DNA of 64,000 nt from Thermofilaceae archaeon (GCA_038861545.1 JAWCCZ010000001.1:416001-480000); one strand, 5' to 3'. Positions 3,980 to 27,655 are shown, counted from the first letter of the stretch. Notes: generated by a model from the sequence alone, not told the origin. Translations and numbers: made by a program.

Positions 3980-4750
3980 CTTGAGTGTTTCCCTAAACTT
4001 TTCCCTAGCCCTTCTCCGCCCTAGCACAAACATATATGAGGTGAAAACCGAGGATGCAGCTACGGCGGCACAAATATAGCTGAAGCCAGTAATTCCTTTC
4101 GATGAAAAAGTTAAGTAAAAGGGTAGCAGGACTGTAAGGAGGGCGGCTGTTACCGCGAGCAACAGAGCGAGAATGCTTTCAGCTATTAACCAGCCCATTA
4201 AGCTGGGCCTTGAGTTTAAAGAGAAGCCGGTTCCCACATCGACTATTAACGCTGTTTTTGGAGCTCCAATAGTAACTGCTACAAAGATAAGGTCCCCAAT
4301 ACTGCCTAAAATGTTCCAGAAAAACATACCTGCTACTAAGAGCTGGAGTGAATTTCCGCTCAGCAAACTGAGAATAGCTAAGAGAGGGGTAAGGAAAACT
4401 AATGGAGCCAAAGCGATTAGGCGCCATTTACCCAGCGGTATGGGCTCCGGTGACCTGAAGCCTAAACCCACGGCTAGCAGCTTTTTCTCAGTATAGAAAA
4501 ACACACTCACCTTCCCGGACCCGGCTATTTTAGCGGTTACCACGTGAAACAACTCATGTGCAGGAATTAAAGGGATCGCTGAGAGAATAAGCAGTAAAAC
4601 CCCCTGCTGCGAGAGGACATTCTCCGCCAACGCTGTAACTAAGTGTAGCGCGAGTGGTATTAGCAAGAGAGTTAACGCCAATATATACTCCGATATCTCC
4701 TTGATGTTAACTTTATACGAGATTTGGTCGTAGTTGCTTCCCAAATTCAC
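3971..4750 (-). CDS. membrane zincin-like protein (DUF3267-type putative metalloprotease)
   Basis: HELFH motif after a TM helix, LAP motif and N...S.GD motif, multiple TM segments. Confidence 0.7.
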   Translation of the reverse strand: MNLGSNYDQISYKVNIKEISEYILALTLLLIPLALHLVTALAENVLSQQGVLLLILSAIPLIPAHELFHVVTAKIAGSGKVSVFFYTEKKLLAVGLGFRSPEPIPLGKWRLIALAPLVFLTPLLAILSLLSGNSLQLLVAGMFFWNILGSIGDLIFVAVTIGAPKTALIVDVGTGFSLNSRPSLMGWLIAESILALLLAVTAALLTVLLPFYLTFSSKGITGFSYICAAVAASSVFTSYMFVLGRRRAREKFRETLKLP

Positions 4751-4776
4751 GATCAGATAGCTAAAAATATCTTGAA

Positions 4777-5676
4777 GTGTTTTTCGCCCCCATCCCTGTG
4801 GAAAGCATAGCTAATGCACTCATAAAGCTTTACCTCCCAGCCGCTCTCGGGATATTTTTTTCTCGAGCAGCTAAGCCTGGTGAAGAGTTCTTCCGCTTAC
4901 TCTCTAAAGCGTTGCTGTACTCCTTCCTTCCCCTGCTACTATTTACATCGATTTACGGTGCTAACCCGCTCGAGCTCGCTGCAGGTTTCACTCAAATAAC
5001 TGTTGCAGTAGCAGTAAATGTTGTAACTTCTGCAACTTTCTCCTACATTTTGACAAGGGATTTGGAGATCGTACAGCTTTCAGTCTACGTGAACGCCGGT
5101 TATCTTCCAATACCGATAGCTTATACGCTGTGGGGTTCCTCGGCTCTACCTCTTGTCGGTTTCTACATACTTTTCAATGCTTCGCTGGGCTACTTGCTAG
5201 CTCCTGTACTCATTAAAGGTGATCTTCAATCCGGATTAAAAGAAATGGTCAAGTTTCCCCCACTCTATGCGATTCTAGCCGGTCTACTTGTGTCGCTGAT
5301 GGGTGTAGAATTTCCGAGCTTCATAGAAGAAGCGGTAAAAGATGTTAGTAATGTGACACCCTACCTGGCCCTTTTTACATTAGGTGCTCAAGTTTCGCAT
5401 GCTGGTTTCAAAGTTGACGGTAAAACGGCAAAGTTGGCCTTGGTGAGGTTCTTTATAGCCCCGCTAGTAGTCTGGCTGTCAGCTCCTCTTTACCTAATAC
5501 CCTCTAACCTATCTTACAAGGTCGCGCTGCTGGAGTCTTGCATGCCTCCAGCGGTCACGAATGTAGTTCTCTCCAGCGTTTACTCCACCGAGCCCGGGAA
5601 AACTGTTAGAACTGTTTTCTCGCTTACTCTAATGTCTATGCTGATTGTACCGGCAGTTATGGTTTTGCTAAGTTAA
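4777..5676 (+). CDS. AEC family transporter (auxin efflux carrier/malate permease-like)
   Basis: About 10 TM helices; LP.LLF, NAGYLPIP, PPLYA and MPPAV motifs. Confidence 0.85.
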   Translation: MFFAPIPVESIANALIKLYLPAALGIFFSRAAKPGEEFFRLLSKALLYSFLPLLLFTSIYGANPLELAAGFTQITVAVAVNVVTSATFSYILTRDLEIVQLSVYVNAGYLPIPIAYTLWGSSALPLVGFYILFNASLGYLLAPVLIKGDLQSGLKEMVKFPPLYAILAGLLVSLMGVEFPSFIEEAVKDVSNVTPYLALFTLGAQVSHAGFKVDGKTAKLALVRFFIAPLVVWLSAPLYLIPSNLSYKVALLESCMPPAVTNVVLSSVYSTEPGKTVRTVFSLTLMSMLIVPAVMVLLS

Positions 5677-5718: not shown

Positions 5719-6519
5719 GTGGGTCTAGCACCGGGATCCAAGGCGATTGTAATTTCCGTGGGTAACGAGCTTTTGATCGGCAAGGTTGTTAACACTAATT
5801 TCAGTTGGCTGGGCTCTAAGTTAACCGAGCTAGGTTTTAGAGTGGATAGGGGAATAGTTGTTCCGGACGACTTGGAAGTAATATCTTGGGCTTTTAGAAC
5901 TGCGGTTGACGCCGGCGCCAAGGTCGTGATCGCGACCGGGGGTCTTGGACCGACTTTCGATGATATGACGTCTGAAGGGTTAGCAAGGGCCATGGGTGTA
6001 GAGATGGAATTGAATGACGATGCGTTGGAAATGATCAGAAGGAAGTACGGAGGTGAGCTCACTGAGAGTAGGACAAAGATGGCTAAGATGCCTAGAGGTG
6101 CGAAGCCGATCGCGAACCCAGTAGGTACGGCACCCGGAGTTGAAGTTGAGTGGCGTGGGTCTATGTTTTTCCTCCTTCCCGGGGTTCCGTCAGAAATGAT
6201 GGCTATGTTTGAAGAAAATATTAAACCAAAGCTTATCCAGCGGGTACGGACTTTAAAGAGAGCCGAGTCTCTTCTCCGCTCCATTGGCTTACCCGAGTCT
6301 CTAGCTGCACCGGTCGTGGAGAATGCTGCGAAAATAGGGGAGTATACGTATGTAAAGAGCCACCCTAAGGGCTCGGAGACGGGTAAGCCCATTCTAGAAC
6401 TACATGTAACGGCGTATGGGGTTAGCGAAGAGGAAGCTTTAAACAAGCTTGAAGAAGTTATAAACTATCTATTTAGGGAACTAAGCAGTAGGGGGGCTCA
6501 AGTTTATAGAATCGGCTAG
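5719..6519 (+). CDS. CinA N-terminal/MoCF-biosynthesis domain protein (COG1058, ADP-ribose/FAD pyrophosphatase-like)
   Basis: GNELLIG...NTN, GGLGPTFDDMT, NPVGTAPG, LPGVPSEM motifs. Confidence 0.88.
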   Translation: MGLAPGSKAIVISVGNELLIGKVVNTNFSWLGSKLTELGFRVDRGIVVPDDLEVISWAFRTAVDAGAKVVIATGGLGPTFDDMTSEGLARAMGVEMELNDDALEMIRRKYGGELTESRTKMAKMPRGAKPIANPVGTAPGVEVEWRGSMFFLLPGVPSEMMAMFEENIKPKLIQRVRTLKRAESLLRSIGLPESLAAPVVENAAKIGEYTYVKSHPKGSETGKPILELHVTAYGVSEEEALNKLEEVINYLFRELSSRGAQVYRIG

Positions 6520-6530
6520 CGGTAAGGGGT

Positions 6531-7571
6531 ATGAAGGTCTGGTTGGATGCTCTAACCCCCAAGCAGGGTAGACTTATTGCAAGTCTGGCTAACGTGCTTA
6601 AGGAAGACGGATATGAAGTACTGGTCACGTGCCGAGATTATGAGTGCACGTACTTTTCGATTAAACTGTATGGCTTAGAGCCGGTGGTAGTCGGCATACA
6701 CGGTGGATCCACGAATTTGGGTAAGCTCGTAGCCGATGGGGAAAGAATACTTGCATTATCAAGGCTTGTGGATTCCTTTAAGCCACATGTTTTGATCTCC
6801 TATCCGAATCCTTCAGCAAGTAGAGTTGCTTTCGGTTTGGGCTCAAAGTACGTAGCTTTTAACGATACTCCTCATGCTGTAGCTGCCAACAGGTTAGCCC
6901 TACCTCTATGCGACGCGCTAGTAGCTTCGGAGGCGTTGCAAGGCGATTTCGACAGTTTCCTGCTACCCGGTACGCGGGTTACATACTACAAAGGTGTCGA
7001 TGAAGCTATCTGGGTTAAACGGTTTATTCCTAAAGGGATCACAGCTCGAGGGCTCAACTTAGAGGAAAGGCGCTATGTTATAGTAAGGCCCGAGGAGTAC
7101 AAGGCGGCTTATTACTCGTGGGAGGGATGGAGTTGGCTTGAACTATGCGAAGAGCTTAAAAGAAAAGGGTTCAGCGTTGTGGTACTCCCAAGGTATGAGG
7201 AGCAGCGGTTAGCGGCTCTAAAACGGGGTTTCACAGTCCCCTCATCCTGCATCGATGGAATGGATTTAACATACTACGCTGCAGCTGTTGTGACAGGGGG
7301 TGGGACGATGGCTCGGGAAGCTGCACTTCTTGGCGTACCCTCCTACTATATGTTCCCCTTAGAGCTGAAGGTCAGCAACCTTGTCTCAGCGATAGGCTTC
7401 CCTTTAAAGAGATGGAGGGGGAGCCCACGCGAACTGGCAGAAGAGATAGCGAGCATAGAGATTAGTGAAATCGAGGAATCTATTCTTAAAGCCAAAAGTT
7501 TGCTGGATAAAATAGAGACGCCTGAAAAAATTCTAGCTGGGATTTTAACAGATCTTTTAGGCTCAAACTAA
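6531..7571 (+). CDS. DUF354 family GT-B fold protein
   Basis: KVWLD..TPKQ N-terminus, DTPHA, GGGTMAREAALLGVP. Confidence 0.85.
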   Translation: MKVWLDALTPKQGRLIASLANVLKEDGYEVLVTCRDYECTYFSIKLYGLEPVVVGIHGGSTNLGKLVADGERILALSRLVDSFKPHVLISYPNPSASRVAFGLGSKYVAFNDTPHAVAANRLALPLCDALVASEALQGDFDSFLLPGTRVTYYKGVDEAIWVKRFIPKGITARGLNLEERRYVIVRPEEYKAAYYSWEGWSWLELCEELKRKGFSVVVLPRYEEQRLAALKRGFTVPSSCIDGMDLTYYAAAVVTGGGTMAREAALLGVPSYYMFPLELKVSNLVSAIGFPLKRWRGSPRELAEEIASIEISEIEESILKAKSLLDKIETPEKILAGILTDLLGSN

Positions 7572-23118: not shown

Positions 23119-23132
23119 AAAAACCTTTAAAT
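23119..23132 (+). promoter_or_regulatory. BRE/TATA promoter for leaderless SPFH operon
   Basis: AAAAACC-TTTAAAT about 25-30 nt upstream of ATG 23156. Confidence 0.55.
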
Positions 23133-23155: not shown

Positions 23156-23689
23156 ATGAGTGAGATCGTAAAGAGGTATGAGGAGAAAAGGAGTCTATCA
23201 GAGAAAATAGCCTCATACATACCTGGCTATAGGGGTTATAAGCAGAAAGAGGTTAGAAGGGAGGCTGATAAGCTAGTCCGAGACTTCATGGTTAGGAAAC
23301 TCTCGGAAGCCAGAGGCCACTTGAAAGACGCTACAAGGTCTGTAGCTGAGGCTGAAGCCGCACAGCTCTATAAACTGCTAAACAGGGTATCAGCGGTAAT
23401 GGATAGAGTGATAAACAAGATCGAGCACGCGGATTACGGGTACTCGGGTTTATTCGACCTAGTTAAGGTGAGAGAGGAGGAGCTAGATAAGCTACTGGAG
23501 TACGATCATGGCCTCCTGAGTAGATGCGAGGAAATCGTAAACATTGCCGCAGAGGTAAGCGGAACGGCGGCTGCAGGTAGTTTCGACGTACTACCAGGTA
23601 AGCTGAAGCAGCTTGAACTGAAGCTTCAGGAGCTTCAGAAAATGTTTGCTTCAAGGGAAGAGATTATAACGTCTGTAAGAGGTGGTTAA
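23156..23689 (+). CDS. conserved alpha-helical/coiled-coil protein, first gene of SPFH operon
   Basis: IPGYRGY..KE.RREAD and ADYGYSG.FD motifs; predominantly helical. Confidence 0.8.
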   Translation: MSEIVKRYEEKRSLSEKIASYIPGYRGYKQKEVRREADKLVRDFMVRKLSEARGHLKDATRSVAEAEAAQLYKLLNRVSAVMDRVINKIEHADYGYSGLFDLVKVREEELDKLLEYDHGLLSRCEEIVNIAAEVSGTAAAGSFDVLPGKLKQLELKLQELQKMFASREEIITSVRGG

Positions 23690-23691
23690 AG

Positions 23692-24741
23692 ATGCCACAG
23701 GTAATCGAATGGATTGGGGCCTCCGAGGGCGATATTGTATGGAGATACCCTAAGGAGGAGATAACCTGGGGCGCGCAGTTAATCGTTCACGAGTACGAAG
23801 CCGCGATATTCTTCAGGGATGGTAAAGCTTACGATGTTTTCGGGCCGGGTAGGCATACGCTGACGACGATGAACCTACCTCTGTTAACCCCTGTTCTTTC
23901 CCGAGTAGCAGGCTATGATAAAGTACCGTTTAGAGCAGCTGTGATATTCGTCTCGACGAAGCAGTTTAAAGGTTTATTTGGTGGGAGCGCGCAGACCGTT
24001 GAGCTAGCGCCTTTAAAGTTCTATGGCGCATTCTGGTTTAAGGTGGAGGATCCGAAAACCTTTGTGATGGAAGTTGTCGGAGGGCAAAACGCTTACACAA
24101 CAGACGCGGTTAACAGCTTCCTTAGGGGTTACATGAACGAGAGGCTAATCACTCAGCTTTCAAAGTACGATCTAGTGACTGTATTCACGAAGTTAGAAGA
24201 AGTTTCCTTTAAAGTCAAGGCAGCGATCGACGAGGAGTTTAGAAGAATCGGCGTCGACCTCATTGATTTAAAGTTTGAGGGCATAGATACGACTCCCGAG
24301 TACAGAGATAGGTTGTTCTGGATTAAACAGACCGGAGGGGCTGCCCAGCAGGTTCTAGCAATGGATACGTTGAAGACCGCCGCGGAGTCTTTAAGCAAGT
24401 CCCCTGGAGCTGGAGTCGGAGCTGGAGTAGTGCTTTTACCCCAGATAATGCAGCAAGCCGCCGCTCCTCCACCAATGATAGTATGCCCGAACTGCAAGGC
24501 GCAGGCCCCCTCTACGAGTAAGTTCTGCCCGAACTGTGGCGCATCGCTTCAACCTCCTCCACCGCAGCCTCCAGGCACTGTTACATGCCCGAAGTGCGGT
24601 ACGCAAAACCCGAACACAGCTAAATTCTGCATGAGCTGCGGATCGCCGCTGCAACCGCAGCGAACTAGCTGCCCGCAGTGCGGCAGTGAGGTACCCTCAG
24701 GCGCGAAGTTCTGCCCGAACTGCGGAGCCAAAATCTCCTAG
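23692..24741 (+). CDS. SPFH (Band_7_1/YdjI-like) domain protein with three C-terminal zinc ribbons
   Basis: WRYP....WGAQLIV.E...A.FF.DG...FGPGRHTL.T.NLP; three CxxC-x10-CxxC repeats. Confidence 0.88.
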   Translation: MPQVIEWIGASEGDIVWRYPKEEITWGAQLIVHEYEAAIFFRDGKAYDVFGPGRHTLTTMNLPLLTPVLSRVAGYDKVPFRAAVIFVSTKQFKGLFGGSAQTVELAPLKFYGAFWFKVEDPKTFVMEVVGGQNAYTTDAVNSFLRGYMNERLITQLSKYDLVTVFTKLEEVSFKVKAAIDEEFRRIGVDLIDLKFEGIDTTPEYRDRLFWIKQTGGAAQQVLAMDTLKTAAESLSKSPGAGVGAGVVLLPQIMQQAAAPPPMIVCPNCKAQAPSTSKFCPNCGASLQPPPPQPPGTVTCPKCGTQNPNTAKFCMSCGSPLQPQRTSCPQCGSEVPSGAKFCPNCGAKIS

Positions 24742-25074
24742 ATGAACTATATGTCGAAGCAGAACTATGGGGGTTTGGCGCTAGCTGTAATAACGGCGTC
24801 TATTGGAGCAATAGGCGTGCTGATATCCATAGGGTACCTAGCTCTATACGTGTTGGCCTCCATCCCGCTGCTTGCTTTAGGGATCTATACTTTAGCTTTC
24901 ACAGCCATAGCTGACGATAAAAGGTATTATATTCTCTGGGGCTCCCTTATGACGGGGCTGGGCACCGCGCTTGCCATGGAAACAGTAACCGGCAACCTCC
25001 TGCTAAACCTCAGCATCCTCCTCATGGTTTCAGCTTTAATAGGAGTTCTGCTCGCCTTTAAAAATGGTAAATGA
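24742..25074 (+). CDS. small 4-TM membrane protein
   Basis: 110 aa, four hydrophobic segments, abutting both neighbours. Confidence 0.75.
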   Translation: MNYMSKQNYGGLALAVITASIGAIGVLISIGYLALYVLASIPLLALGIYTLAFTAIADDKRYYILWGSLMTGLGTALAMETVTGNLLLNLSILLMVSALIGVLLAFKNGK

Positions 25075-26024
25075 TGTCGGAGACTATATTTAAATGCTCT
25101 AACTGCGGCGGTCCCCTAAATTATACTCCGGAGACTATCGCTTGCGTATGCGAGTACTGCGGGACAGTTAACTGGTTCGGCGAAGGTAGGTTTGATATCT
25201 TCATCCTGCCTACTAGGACTAGGAACGAGGTAATTAATGCTTTTTGGAGCAGAATGAGGAACGACCCCGATATGAGGAGGGTTTACCAGGATATAGAGCT
25301 CATTGAGGTTCAAGGCTTCTATGTGCCAATACTAGTGGGGGAGGTTTTGGTAAAGGGTGAGTGGACTGGTTTCAAAAGGGTTGTCGAAAAGAAAGGTAAA
25401 TCCTATGTTACTAGAACCGTGACGAAAAGCGGATCCTTTAACAATACTATGAGGCTCACGGTTGAGGCTAGGAGGAGTGCTGCTGAGTACGGCTTGCTCG
25501 AGCTAGTCGAACAGGCTCGGTCGGTTCAGAACGCGTATCCGCTCAACTCCATCGACTGGAAGACTGTTAAGCTACCCGTGCTGAACACCGAAATACTACC
25601 AGAGGAGGCCATAGACGAGCTCAAAGATATAGCCGAGGATTCGATGAGACAGAGCATACGCACCTCGCAGGGTTTAGACGGCTTCTACTACTATCGCTGC
25701 GATACAGAGTTGAAAAGATACTGGATCCTGTTAGCGCCTTTATGGTGCCTAGTTTACAAGTATAGGGGAGGGATGTTCAGAGCTAGCATCTCCGGCTATA
25801 ACCTTCAGTTCCTAAAGGTTTCAGAACCCGTTTTCCTAGGCCAGAGGATCATCTACCTCGTGGGCGGCGCCCTAGCCTCCATTGCTGGTGCAGTGATTCC
25901 CGCGTTAGCATCATCAGGGGATAACTTGGAGTTTCCGATAGGCATAATATTGCTCGCAGCCATAGCTGGAGCATACCTATCCGGTAAATCCATTAGTGAC
26001 GTGAGGGAGGAAGCATGGAAGTAG
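25071..26024 (+). CDS. zinc-ribbon membrane protein (YdjG-like)
   Basis: N-terminal CSNCGG...CEYCG, YVP and P.W...YKY motifs, two C-terminal TM helices. Confidence 0.78.
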   Translation: MMSETIFKCSNCGGPLNYTPETIACVCEYCGTVNWFGEGRFDIFILPTRTRNEVINAFWSRMRNDPDMRRVYQDIELIEVQGFYVPILVGEVLVKGEWTGFKRVVEKKGKSYVTRTVTKSGSFNNTMRLTVEARRSAAEYGLLELVEQARSVQNAYPLNSIDWKTVKLPVLNTEILPEEAIDELKDIAEDSMRQSIRTSQGLDGFYYYRCDTELKRYWILLAPLWCLVYKYRGGMFRASISGYNLQFLKVSEPVFLGQRIIYLVGGALASIAGAVIPALASSGDNLEFPIGIILLAAIAGAYLSGKSISDVREEAWK

Positions 26025-26935
26025 GCTTTAAGCAGATAACTTGCCCCAGCTGCAACGCCCAGCTTAAGGTCCCACTCGCTGTCTCCGTGGTGGTTTGCCC
26101 CTACTGTGGGTATACGTTCGAGGTCTCCAGCGGGAAGAAGCTGGCGTACTACATGTTTCCCATTTATGTTGACAGCCCAACGGCATGGCGGGTAATGATG
26201 CAATTCATTATTAGAAGGTACGGAGTACCTGAAGACTTTACGGTCGAAGCTAACCCGCGCTTCTCAGAGCTTCACTTTGTGCCTTACTACGTTTTCAAGT
26301 GCAGAGCCAGCTCCTACTGCATTTACTCAAATAGAAGCGCCAGCTACTTGGAAACAGCTGATTATCCTATACCGGCAGCGTGGACCGGGACATGGATCGA
26401 TAAGCACCTCGACAACTTCTCGTTTTCAGTTAGGGGTAAAAGCTTTTTCGACCCTAGGCAGGCTCAGAAAGGCAAGCTCCACATGCCGACGGTAAGGTAC
26501 GAAGAAGCTTACAGAGCAGCTTACCAACTCATCGAGAAGCGCGCGCTGAAAGAAGCGAGAGAGAGCTGCAGCGGTGCAGCCAGGTCCGAAAACATCGAAG
26601 TCGGCTTCATCGGGCTCACACATTACCCATTCTGGCTTATGGAATATATATACAAGGGCGAAGTTTACAGAGCTCTTCTAGACGCGTCGAGCGGTAAGGT
26701 CCTTTACGTTGAGTATCCATTAAGGGCAAAGGCAAGGGCAATGATGCTAACAGCCTCAGCTGTCATCATCGGACTGGGCGTAGCTTCAGGGCTCATAGTC
26801 TCGATCGCGGTTTCTCCACTCGGACTTATAGGCGGCGTTATTACCTCTGCAGCAACCGCTTTCCCGTTACTGACGAAAGCCTTTAGGTCCAGGGCTAGGG
26901 GGTCGGAGGCTATAATCCACAGAAGCGTGCGCTAA
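26015..26935 (+). CDS. zinc-ribbon membrane protein (YdjG-like paralogue)
   Basis: CPSC...CPYCG, FVPYY, YPFW...Y.YKG..Y...D..SG, two C-terminal TM helices. Confidence 0.78.
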   Translation: MEVGFKQITCPSCNAQLKVPLAVSVVVCPYCGYTFEVSSGKKLAYYMFPIYVDSPTAWRVMMQFIIRRYGVPEDFTVEANPRFSELHFVPYYVFKCRASSYCIYSNRSASYLETADYPIPAAWTGTWIDKHLDNFSFSVRGKSFFDPRQAQKGKLHMPTVRYEEAYRAAYQLIEKRALKEARESCSGAARSENIEVGFIGLTHYPFWLMEYIYKGEVYRALLDASSGKVLYVEYPLRAKARAMMLTASAVIIGLGVASGLIVSIAVSPLGLIGGVITSAATAFPLLTKAFRSRARGSEAIIHRSVR

Positions 26936-26949
26936 TAAGCAGGTTGAAA

Positions 26950-27655
26950 ATGGTTAAAATTTACGTGGGAACTTCGGGATGGCTTTACGGCTGGAATGAA
27001 GGAGGGGGTCTCGAATGGTATGTTTCCCACTCGGGTTTAAACGCTATCGAGCTAAACGCGTCTTTCTACAGATTCCCATTCCCAGCTCAAGTTAAGTCTT
27101 GGGTTAAAAGGGGGGGGAGGCTTAAGGTGGTCTATTAAGGTGCATCGGTCGATTACCCACCTGAGAAAGCTGGGTTCTGAAGCCTTGAAGACATGGGAGC
27201 GCTTCAGAGAGCTTTTCAAGCCTATGGATCACTTGGTGGATTTTTACCTTTTCCAGCTGCCTCCAAACTTCTCTGCAACGAACAGTAACTTTAACCGGAT
27301 AAGGGAATTCGCCTCCTTCACCGGTTTAAGGTGGAGAATGGCTGTAGAGTTCAGGCATGAGTCATGGTTTTCAGCGGAGTCCGCGGAGCTTTGCCGGGAA
27401 ATAGAAGCGACATTCGTATCTGTTGACGCGCCGATAGCTAGGTGGATTGCCTCCAGCAACGGGATCGTATACCTGCGCGTACATGGCAGGGACTCATGGT
27501 ATGCTTACGACTACAGCGAGGATGAGCTTAGGGACCTAGCCAGGAGAACAGCTAAACTTACTCCTGAAAAAATCTATGTTTTCTTCAATAACAACCACTG
27601 GATGCTTGGGAACGCCAGGGTTATGCGAACATTGTTACACGAAACGCTCCGCTAA
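26950..27655 (+). pseudogene. DUF72 family protein, frameshifted at a G8 tract
   Basis: VGTSGW.Y and ELNASFYRFP in the first frame; K.HRSITH, QLPP, EFRH.SW, YLR.HG and FFNN in the next; removing one G at 27110-27117 fuses them. Confidence 0.85.

Follow-up and report, generated by a model that had tools for sequence, protein, structure and literature searches.

SPFH proteins are universal membrane organizers, but work on the YdjI branch of this family is, to our knowledge, confined to Bacillus, and there its interpretation is dominated by PspA. What kind of system does a YdjI-type SPFH gene belong to in an archaeon that has no detectable PspA? The question is raised by the window analyzed here, a stretch of 64,000 nucleotides from a Thermofilaceae archaeon (GCA_038861545.1, JAWCCZ010000001.1:416001-480000; positions are counted from its first nucleotide). 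Positions 23156-26935 contain five co-oriented open reading frames (ORFs) on the + strand, g1 to g5, which abut or overlap in the ORF listing. Two nucleotides separate g1 from g2 and none separates g2 from g3, while g3 and g4 overlap by 4 nucleotides and g4 and g5 by 10. The core formed by the SPFH protein and YdjG-like proteins is already known; the operon is a variant of it, with a partner protein from an unnamed family, no PspA or TPM protein, a duplicated YdjG and a small transmembrane subunit.

The SPFH protein is encoded by g2 (23692-24741, + strand, 349 amino acids) and matches the Pfam family Band_7_1 (PF13421) with an E-value of 2.3e-32 and 112.8 bits, against a cut-off of 24, over profile positions 1-198 of 211. 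After its Band_7_1 domain (residues 16-203) come a linker rich in A/G/P/Q and, at the C-terminus, three Zn_Ribbon_1 stretches. This triple zinc-ribbon tail (24475-24738, + strand, residues ~262-349) also contains Pfam DZR stretches. The protein appears soluble, and a hydropathy scan found no transmembrane segment in it. The Bacillus SPFH protein YdjI (SamI) is soluble and combines Band_7_1 with a low-complexity linker and a zinc ribbon at its C-terminus (PMC8581546, PMC13713150). The archaeal protein shares this architecture, having no membrane anchor, a low-complexity linker and C-terminal zinc fingers, and differs in carrying three ribbons. More than 4400 relatives are found at E<=1e-5. Proteins from Bathyarchaeia, Nitrososphaeria and Thermofilaceae share 68-72% identity in the SPFH part, and the number of zinc ribbons among relatives ranges from 0 to 4. 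The public contig closest to the window, with 92% identity for g2, comes from an uncultured Thermofilaceae metagenome-assembled genome (MAG), and other close loci are labeled Thermoproteota, Brockarchaeota or Bathyarchaeia. The genome under study (1.63 Mb, 92% complete) contains one Band_7_1 gene.

The last two genes, g4 (25071-26024, + strand, 317 amino acids) and g5 (26015-26935, + strand, 306 amino acids), encode paralogous membrane proteins. Each has a single N-terminal CxxC..CxxC zinc ribbon (residues 9-30 in g4 and 10-31 in g5, with Pfam zinc-ribbon matches in g5), a YdjG-like alpha+beta domain and two C-terminal transmembrane segments by hydropathy. The two match each other in BLASTP (E-value 1e-4) over a motif that precedes the transmembrane segments, and both fit one profile (A3), built from g4, g5 and their Bathyarchaeia counterparts. 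This profile was aligned by hhalign with that of eight Bacillota_A YdjG-like proteins (A4), which were chosen by operon context as proxies for Bacillus subtilis YdjG. The alignment has a probability of 99.5% and an E-value of 8.3e-23 over 239 columns, extending from the zinc ribbon through G.YVP.W to P.W..Y.Y.GK.Y....G..G, and the single ribbon of g4 and g5 aligns with the second ribbon of the bacterial proteins, which have two. Through these proxies, g4 and g5 are identified as true homologs of YdjG-type proteins. Of 151 Bacillota_A genomes searched, 12 contain matches to the g4/g5 profile. At one Bacillota_A locus (L128), a PspA gene (PF04012) is followed by genes for a 343-residue TF_Zn_Ribbon protein, a TPM protein (PF04536) and a Band_7_1 protein with a zinc ribbon, which is the order of pspA-ydjGHI; at other Bacillota_A loci, Band_7_1 is paired directly with a zinc-ribbon protein. 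The zinc-ribbon protein of L128 is one of those aligned with g4 and g5, and the proxies have a single transmembrane segment.

Published descriptions of YdjG include one or more zinc ribbons, an NTF2-like domain related to YpeB and a transmembrane segment (PMC11237479). A structure search of g4 in the ESM Atlas leads to a Bacillota cluster annotated as TFIIB-type zinc ribbon-containing protein (343 residues, TM-score 0.64). The AlphaFold2 (AF2) model of g4, with a mean predicted local distance difference test (pLDDT) score of 84.9, contains two units of a helix and a long beta-hairpin, followed by two transmembrane helices. Its beta-strands are unusually long (residues 76-108, 111-132 and 204-231) and, judging from the model, probably form the strongly curved sheet of an NTF2/PepSY-like domain. 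Foldseek gave no significant match for g4 in the PDB and did not confirm the NTF2 label. Its only Foldseek neighbors, the pores of beta-pore-forming toxins, matched at an insignificant TM-score of ~0.09, driven by the long beta-hairpins, and were discarded as noise. A further architecture of the YdjG-like family is seen upstream of g1 at another locus (L107, G008:C1:1000000-1012000), where an ORF at 4033-5496 encodes a 487-residue YdjG-like protein with an extra N-terminal domain of ~200 residues, beta-rich by eye, in front of the zinc ribbon.

Between g2 and g4 lies g3 (24742-25074, + strand, 110 amino acids), a small integral membrane protein that behaves as a variable accessory of the module. 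Hydropathy indicates three clear transmembrane segments and a weaker fourth. The protein has no Pfam family, but its place is kept in related loci, and its profile matches the small transmembrane genes of two further loci (L131, E-value 5e-11; L132, E-value 3e-8). The TPM family (PF04536) has no match in any of the five proteins, although TPM is picked up by this search at the loci of the bacterial proxies. The operon has no counterpart of the TPM-domain protein YdjH, g3 being a small multi-transmembrane protein.

Set beside the Bacillus pspA-ydjGHI operon (also pspA-samGHI), the archaeal operon contains g2 as the equivalent of YdjI/SamI, and g4 and g5 as equivalents of YdjG/SamG with their zinc ribbon, alpha+beta domain and C-terminal transmembrane part. 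Co-transcription of all genes of the Bacillus operon is a further likeness to the five-gene arrangement. In contrast, PspA and YdjH are missing, and g1 and the small protein with three to four transmembrane segments are found instead. The archaeal YdjG-like protein is also duplicated, with one zinc ribbon rather than two and a hairpin of two transmembrane segments rather than one. The complete pspA-ydjGHI system is thus not present, since both PspA and TPM are absent.

The first gene, g1 (23156-23689, + strand), encodes a soluble protein of 177 amino acids, predicted to be a four-helix bundle and belonging to a large unnamed family; a hydropathy scan detected no transmembrane segment. At E<=1e-3, 1808 cluster representatives (clusters at 50% identity) match the g1 profile, and the family alignment contains two nearly invariant motifs of aromatic, glycine and basic residues, PG[YF]xGYxxKExRRExD (residues 23-38) and HAxYGYxGFFDxVK (residues 91-104). 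The sole curated model that recognizes g1 is NCBIfam NF047596 (LIMLP_15305 family protein, Leptospira), which also matches 104 of 105 diverse g1 relatives. The match covers the full length (58.6 bits, E-value 6.9e-16). Because this score lies far under the 210 bits required for the equivalog, g1 is not a member of it and is placed in the wider superfamily instead. The Leptospira family has no assigned function, and the sole paper matching LIMLP_15305 just lists the locus tag. In the AF2 model (pLDDT 78.5, predicted TM-score 0.74), g1 is a compact bundle of four helices (residues 30-65, 69-90, 107-139 and 143-165) with a poorly ordered N-terminus, and both conserved motifs should lie at the same end of this modeled bundle.

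Fusion proteins in the g1 family include a zinc ribbon joined to g1 by a P/Q linker (P0178), a fusion of g1 with DUF4178 (P0207), and g1 domains with long P/G/Q-rich tails. DUF4178 is found in PspA/polyamine operons according to Ravi et al. (PMC11237479). Through such fusions, g1 is connected with zinc ribbons and with a domain of phage-shock-protein context. In three Thermoproteota genomes, the g1 homolog has one in-frame stop inside an otherwise full-length match: TGA in G141:C2:9640-10152 and G264:C30:6143-6658, and TAA in G394:C72:28690-29214. These stops could reflect pseudogenes, sequencing errors or recoding.

The linkage of g1 to the SPFH gene was examined in 401 evenly sampled Thermoproteota genomes, among which related genomes are not independent of each other. 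The g1 profile is found in 195 and PF13421 in 225 of them, with nearly identical tallies per family. Wherever the places of both genes are listed, g1 lies upstream of Band_7_1 on the same strand (133/133 genomes). The spacing is at most 250 nucleotides in 123 of these 133 genomes, and a gap of 0.9-1.5 kb is found in 10. Four gap cases were examined: the gap holds a YdjG-like gene in two (L131, L132) and an opposite-strand gene with five transmembrane segments in the others (L106, L133). From this pattern we infer that g1 is an obligate upstream partner of Band_7_1 SPFH genes.

Twelve related Thermoproteota contigs show all five genes in the order g1-g2-g3-g4-g5. In distant lineages, the g1-SPFH pair is joined by zero to three YdjG-like genes, usually together with a small gene encoding three to four transmembrane segments. 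Bathyarchaeia loci contain a zinc-ribbon protein of 248 residues without transmembrane segments, followed by g1, g2 and a small protein with four transmembrane segments, whereas complete Sulfolobaceae-like genomes carry a reduced trio of g1, an SPFH protein without zinc ribbons and a protein with three transmembrane segments. Sulfolobus acidocaldarius also scores for Band_7_1 in a control search. As the order recurs in the 12 related contigs and the module is found in variable form throughout the phylum, the five-gene arrangement is far beyond chance. A stomatin/NfeD reading of the Sulfolobaceae-like loci was set aside on inspection of the sequences (no NfeD Pfam search was made), because their small transmembrane proteins have no soluble C-terminal domain. 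Some of the related contigs are less compact than the window: in L002-L005 and L007-L011, g2 and g3 are 0.3-1.8 kb apart. In several close relatives (L005:7434-8708, for example), a gene for a 424-residue ATPase-like protein, absent from the window, stands between the SPFH gene and the gene with four transmembrane segments and splits the operon; it looks like an archaeal AAA ATPase of DUF234 type.

These results agree in large part with a sequence-only reading of the same DNA, which had described five abutting or overlapping genes at exactly the coordinates of the ORF list. The helical 177-residue protein it saw first is the all-helix bundle of the g1 model, its SPFH protein with three zinc ribbons is g2, whose YdjI-like nature is borne out by the Band_7_1 search, and its two paralogous proteins with a zinc ribbon and two transmembrane segments, regarded as a duplicated YdjG, are g4 and g5, as seen from BLASTP, the shared profile, hydropathy and the hhalign comparison. 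The four transmembrane segments it assigned to the third protein are upheld for three, the fourth being weaker. The gene order proved to be conserved, both in the 12 contigs and in the adjacency of g1 and Band_7_1, and the similarity to YdjI and YdjG, whose absence would have counted against that reading, is present.

The g1-SPFH association extends to bacteria. Among 151 Chloroflexota genomes, g1 is found in 24 and Band_7_1 in 37, and 23 of the 24 genomes with g1 also have Band_7_1. In 13 of these 23, the two genes are adjacent or within 1.4 kb, in 4 they lie 5-33 kb apart, and in 6 they are on different contigs. That the two genes still co-occur where they are unlinked speaks for a functional connection and not just for synteny. 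In the Chloroflexota loci L100, L134 and L135, the g1 homolog is positioned directly upstream of Band_7_1, as in the archaeal operon, and the gene before it encodes a zinc-ribbon membrane protein. This protein is of a different kind, however: it has ~175 residues, with two N-terminal transmembrane segments and a C-terminal ribbon, and is not YdjG-like. By reading of the sequence, a large DUF2207-like membrane protein precedes it, and the SPFH protein of L100 ends in an excisionase-like helix-turn-helix instead of zinc ribbons. In a tree of 21 SPFH sequences, many of them on long branches, the main split separates archaeal from bacterial sequences and does not follow the type of partner; the tree is too small and long-branched to polarize the ancestral partner. 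An archaeal Band_7_1 protein (L101, G175:C1:1230000-1242000, gene at 5761-6837) groups with the bacterial sequences in this small tree, on a long branch, and its YdjG-like neighbor has two zinc ribbons and a Gly/Met-rich insert. The L101 locus may represent an inter-domain transfer of the whole module.

The position of g1 recalls that of PspA, and the sequence-only reading had proposed that the helical first gene replaces PspA. The likeness of g1 to PspA/IM30/Vipp1 and the ESCRT-III proteins (CdvB/Snf7) is confined to position and composition: g1 is helical and soluble, and its gene opens an operon that contains a YdjI-type SPFH gene. However, neither PF04012 (PspA_IM30) nor PF03357 (Snf7) matches g1 in Pfam, and hhalign of the g1 profile with a PspA gives a probability of 0.24%. 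The fold of 23156-23689, for which a comparison with PspA, Vipp1 and CdvB had been suggested, was searched with the AF2 model. Foldseek against the PDB returned nothing at E<=1e-3 and no ESCRT-III protein in the top 50, the only matches being insignificant designed or generic helical bundles. The ESM Atlas neighbors are hypothetical archaeal and bacterial clusters (TM-score 0.89) and generic bundles, with no ESCRT-III among them. The predicted compact four-helix bundle also differs from the long alpha1-alpha2 hairpin of PspA and ESCRT-III proteins. A relationship of g1 to either was rejected on the results of Pfam, hhalign, Foldseek and the Atlas search together. Since g1 is unrelated to them in both sequence and predicted fold, the idea of replacement is reduced to an analogy of position only.

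The other half of that proposal, an operon without PspA, holds for the five proteins and well beyond them. Neither PspA nor Snf7 was detected in this 92% complete genome, and PspA exceeds the Pfam cut-off in only 5 of the 401 Thermoproteota genomes. Conversely, g1 is absent from all five Bacillota_A genomes with YdjG-like genes that were checked. In view of these two distributions, g1 and PspA look like alternative partners of YdjI-type SPFH proteins in the genomes searched. A more speculative thought, to which we give a small share of our belief, is that the g1 family represents a new class of SPFH-coupled membrane effectors, which would do the job of PspA/ESCRT-III, sealing or remodeling stressed parts of the membrane, in organisms without PspA, among them many archaea and some bacteria; Snf7/CdvB is lacking in this lineage as well. 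If this were true, the pair of g1 and Band_7_1 would be an ancient, unrecognized membrane-maintenance machine spanning both domains.

How might the five proteins work together? In Bacillus, YdjG and YdjH are required to bring the soluble YdjI to the membrane (PMC8581546). Recruitment of PspA is a further property expected of YdjI-type proteins. We lean slightly toward the view that the five genes specify a YdjI/YdjG-type SPFH complex beneath the membrane that works without PspA and is concerned with membrane homeostasis or stress, in which g3, g4 and g5 would serve as receptor, g2 as recruited oligomer and g1 as obligate partner. In such a complex, g4 and g5, each with a cytoplasmic zinc ribbon, an alpha+beta domain and a transmembrane hairpin, would form the membrane receptor together with g3. 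The soluble g2, presumably in oligomeric form, would be drawn to the inner membrane face by this receptor, and g1 would bind the SPFH assembly as an obligate partner that acts as effector or regulator. A role in membrane homeostasis or in an envelope-stress response is likely by analogy; we infer all of the physical interactions, as well as the physiological role, from Bacillus.

Several points weigh against this assignment. The YdjG-like proteins of Bathyarchaeia have no transmembrane segments, and the loci of Sulfolobaceae type have neither zinc ribbons nor YdjG-like genes nearby, so that an anchoring role of g4 and g5 is not universal. The homology test for YdjG used Bacillota_A proteins identified by operon context rather than B. 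subtilis YdjG itself, neither g1 nor g4 has a solved relative according to Foldseek, and the literature searched contained no paper on archaeal members. Moreover, recent work in Bacillus describes SamI more as a regulator of SamH signaling than as a repair scaffold (PMC13713150); since the archaeal operon has no SamH/TPM protein, the analogy is incomplete. The operon could alternatively be pictured as a signaling module, in which a membrane sensor made of g3, g4 and g5 is held back or gated by the SPFH protein, as SamH is by SamI, and g1 passes the signal to a cytoplasmic target. Zinc ribbons are indeed abundant in the module, and HAMP/MCP and NLR coiled-coil domains occur among the Atlas neighbors of g1 at TM-scores of ~0.5. 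Yet g1 matches in the range 0.44-0.56 reflect a generic helical-bundle similarity, no transcription factor, kinase or other output domain is encoded in or next to the operon, and the partner regulated in Bacillus is the very protein that is absent, which together make such a module unlikely.

The wider SPFH family includes the HflK/C-FtsH and stomatin-NfeD operons, and these precedents bring to mind a quality-control cage, an SPFH oligomer that encloses or regulates a membrane protease or client encoded elsewhere, with g1 as adaptor. Chaperone-like roles of band-7 proteins in the assembly of membrane complexes, proposed by Ravi et al. (PMC11237479), would fit such a cage. Neither the operon nor the ~30 related loci examined contain a protease or NfeD gene, however, and g2 has neither the transmembrane anchor nor the long coiled coil of cage-forming SPFH proteins, and we regard the cage as improbable. 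PspA was first found as a phage-induced protein, and some membrane-acting defense systems carry zinc ribbons and transmembrane effectors; the sequence-only reading had on its part raised a possible antiviral function. An antiviral membrane defense of the abortive-infection type nonetheless finds little room in the data. Searches of the five proteins against PADLOC-DB 2.0 gave only noise at the level of zinc ribbons (best E-value 0.0012), and PHROG matches are confined to zinc ribbons as well. The neighbors are housekeeping or sugar genes, with no defense genes among them. The module is lineage-wide: within whole families it is present in 11/12, 19/23 and 24/25 genomes, mostly as a single copy, and the 68-72% identity of the SPFH part across classes is unlike the patchy, fast-evolving pattern of defense genes. 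Defense was dropped as the leading idea on all four counts, PADLOC, PHROGs, context and distribution, and such a function is very improbable.

No description of this module was found in the literature searched, in keeping with the sequence-only reading, which knew of no characterization in Thermoproteota. About half of the 401 Thermoproteota genomes carry the g1-SPFH pair, and the SPFH/YdjG core is widespread there without PspA. This core is tied almost without exception to an undescribed family of predicted four-helix bundles, which also stands beside Band_7_1 in Chloroflexota. The g1 protein thus offers a testable candidate for membrane upkeep in archaea that lack PspA and, in the present genome, also ESCRT-III, and a large family of hypothetical proteins (1808 clusters at 50% identity) gains a clear functional partner. 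Since S. acidocaldarius scores for Band_7_1 and Sulfolobaceae-like genomes carry the reduced trio, the question should be genetically tractable in that group.

Upstream of the operon, a TATA-like box, TTTAAAT (23126-23132, + strand), was read from the sequence ~27 nucleotides 5' of the g1 ATG. No Shine-Dalgarno-like motif was seen in front of g1, whereas such motifs precede g2 (GAGGTGG) and g5 (GGGAGG). Because of the spacing of the box and the missing motif before g1, TTTAAAT is a plausible candidate promoter of a leaderless operon transcript; the leaderless start named in the sequence-only reading is to that extent supported, as a matter of sequence reading. The flanks consist of an 877-residue ORF on the 5' side and a split DUF72-like gene on the 3' side. 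They are common only to the nearest relative and are not part of the module. The DUF72-like gene (26944-27655) is read as two ORFs of 64 and 171 residues with a +1 frame change, which adjoins a homopolymer run of eight G at 27110-27117; either the gene is a pseudogene or the homopolymer was misassembled in the MAG.

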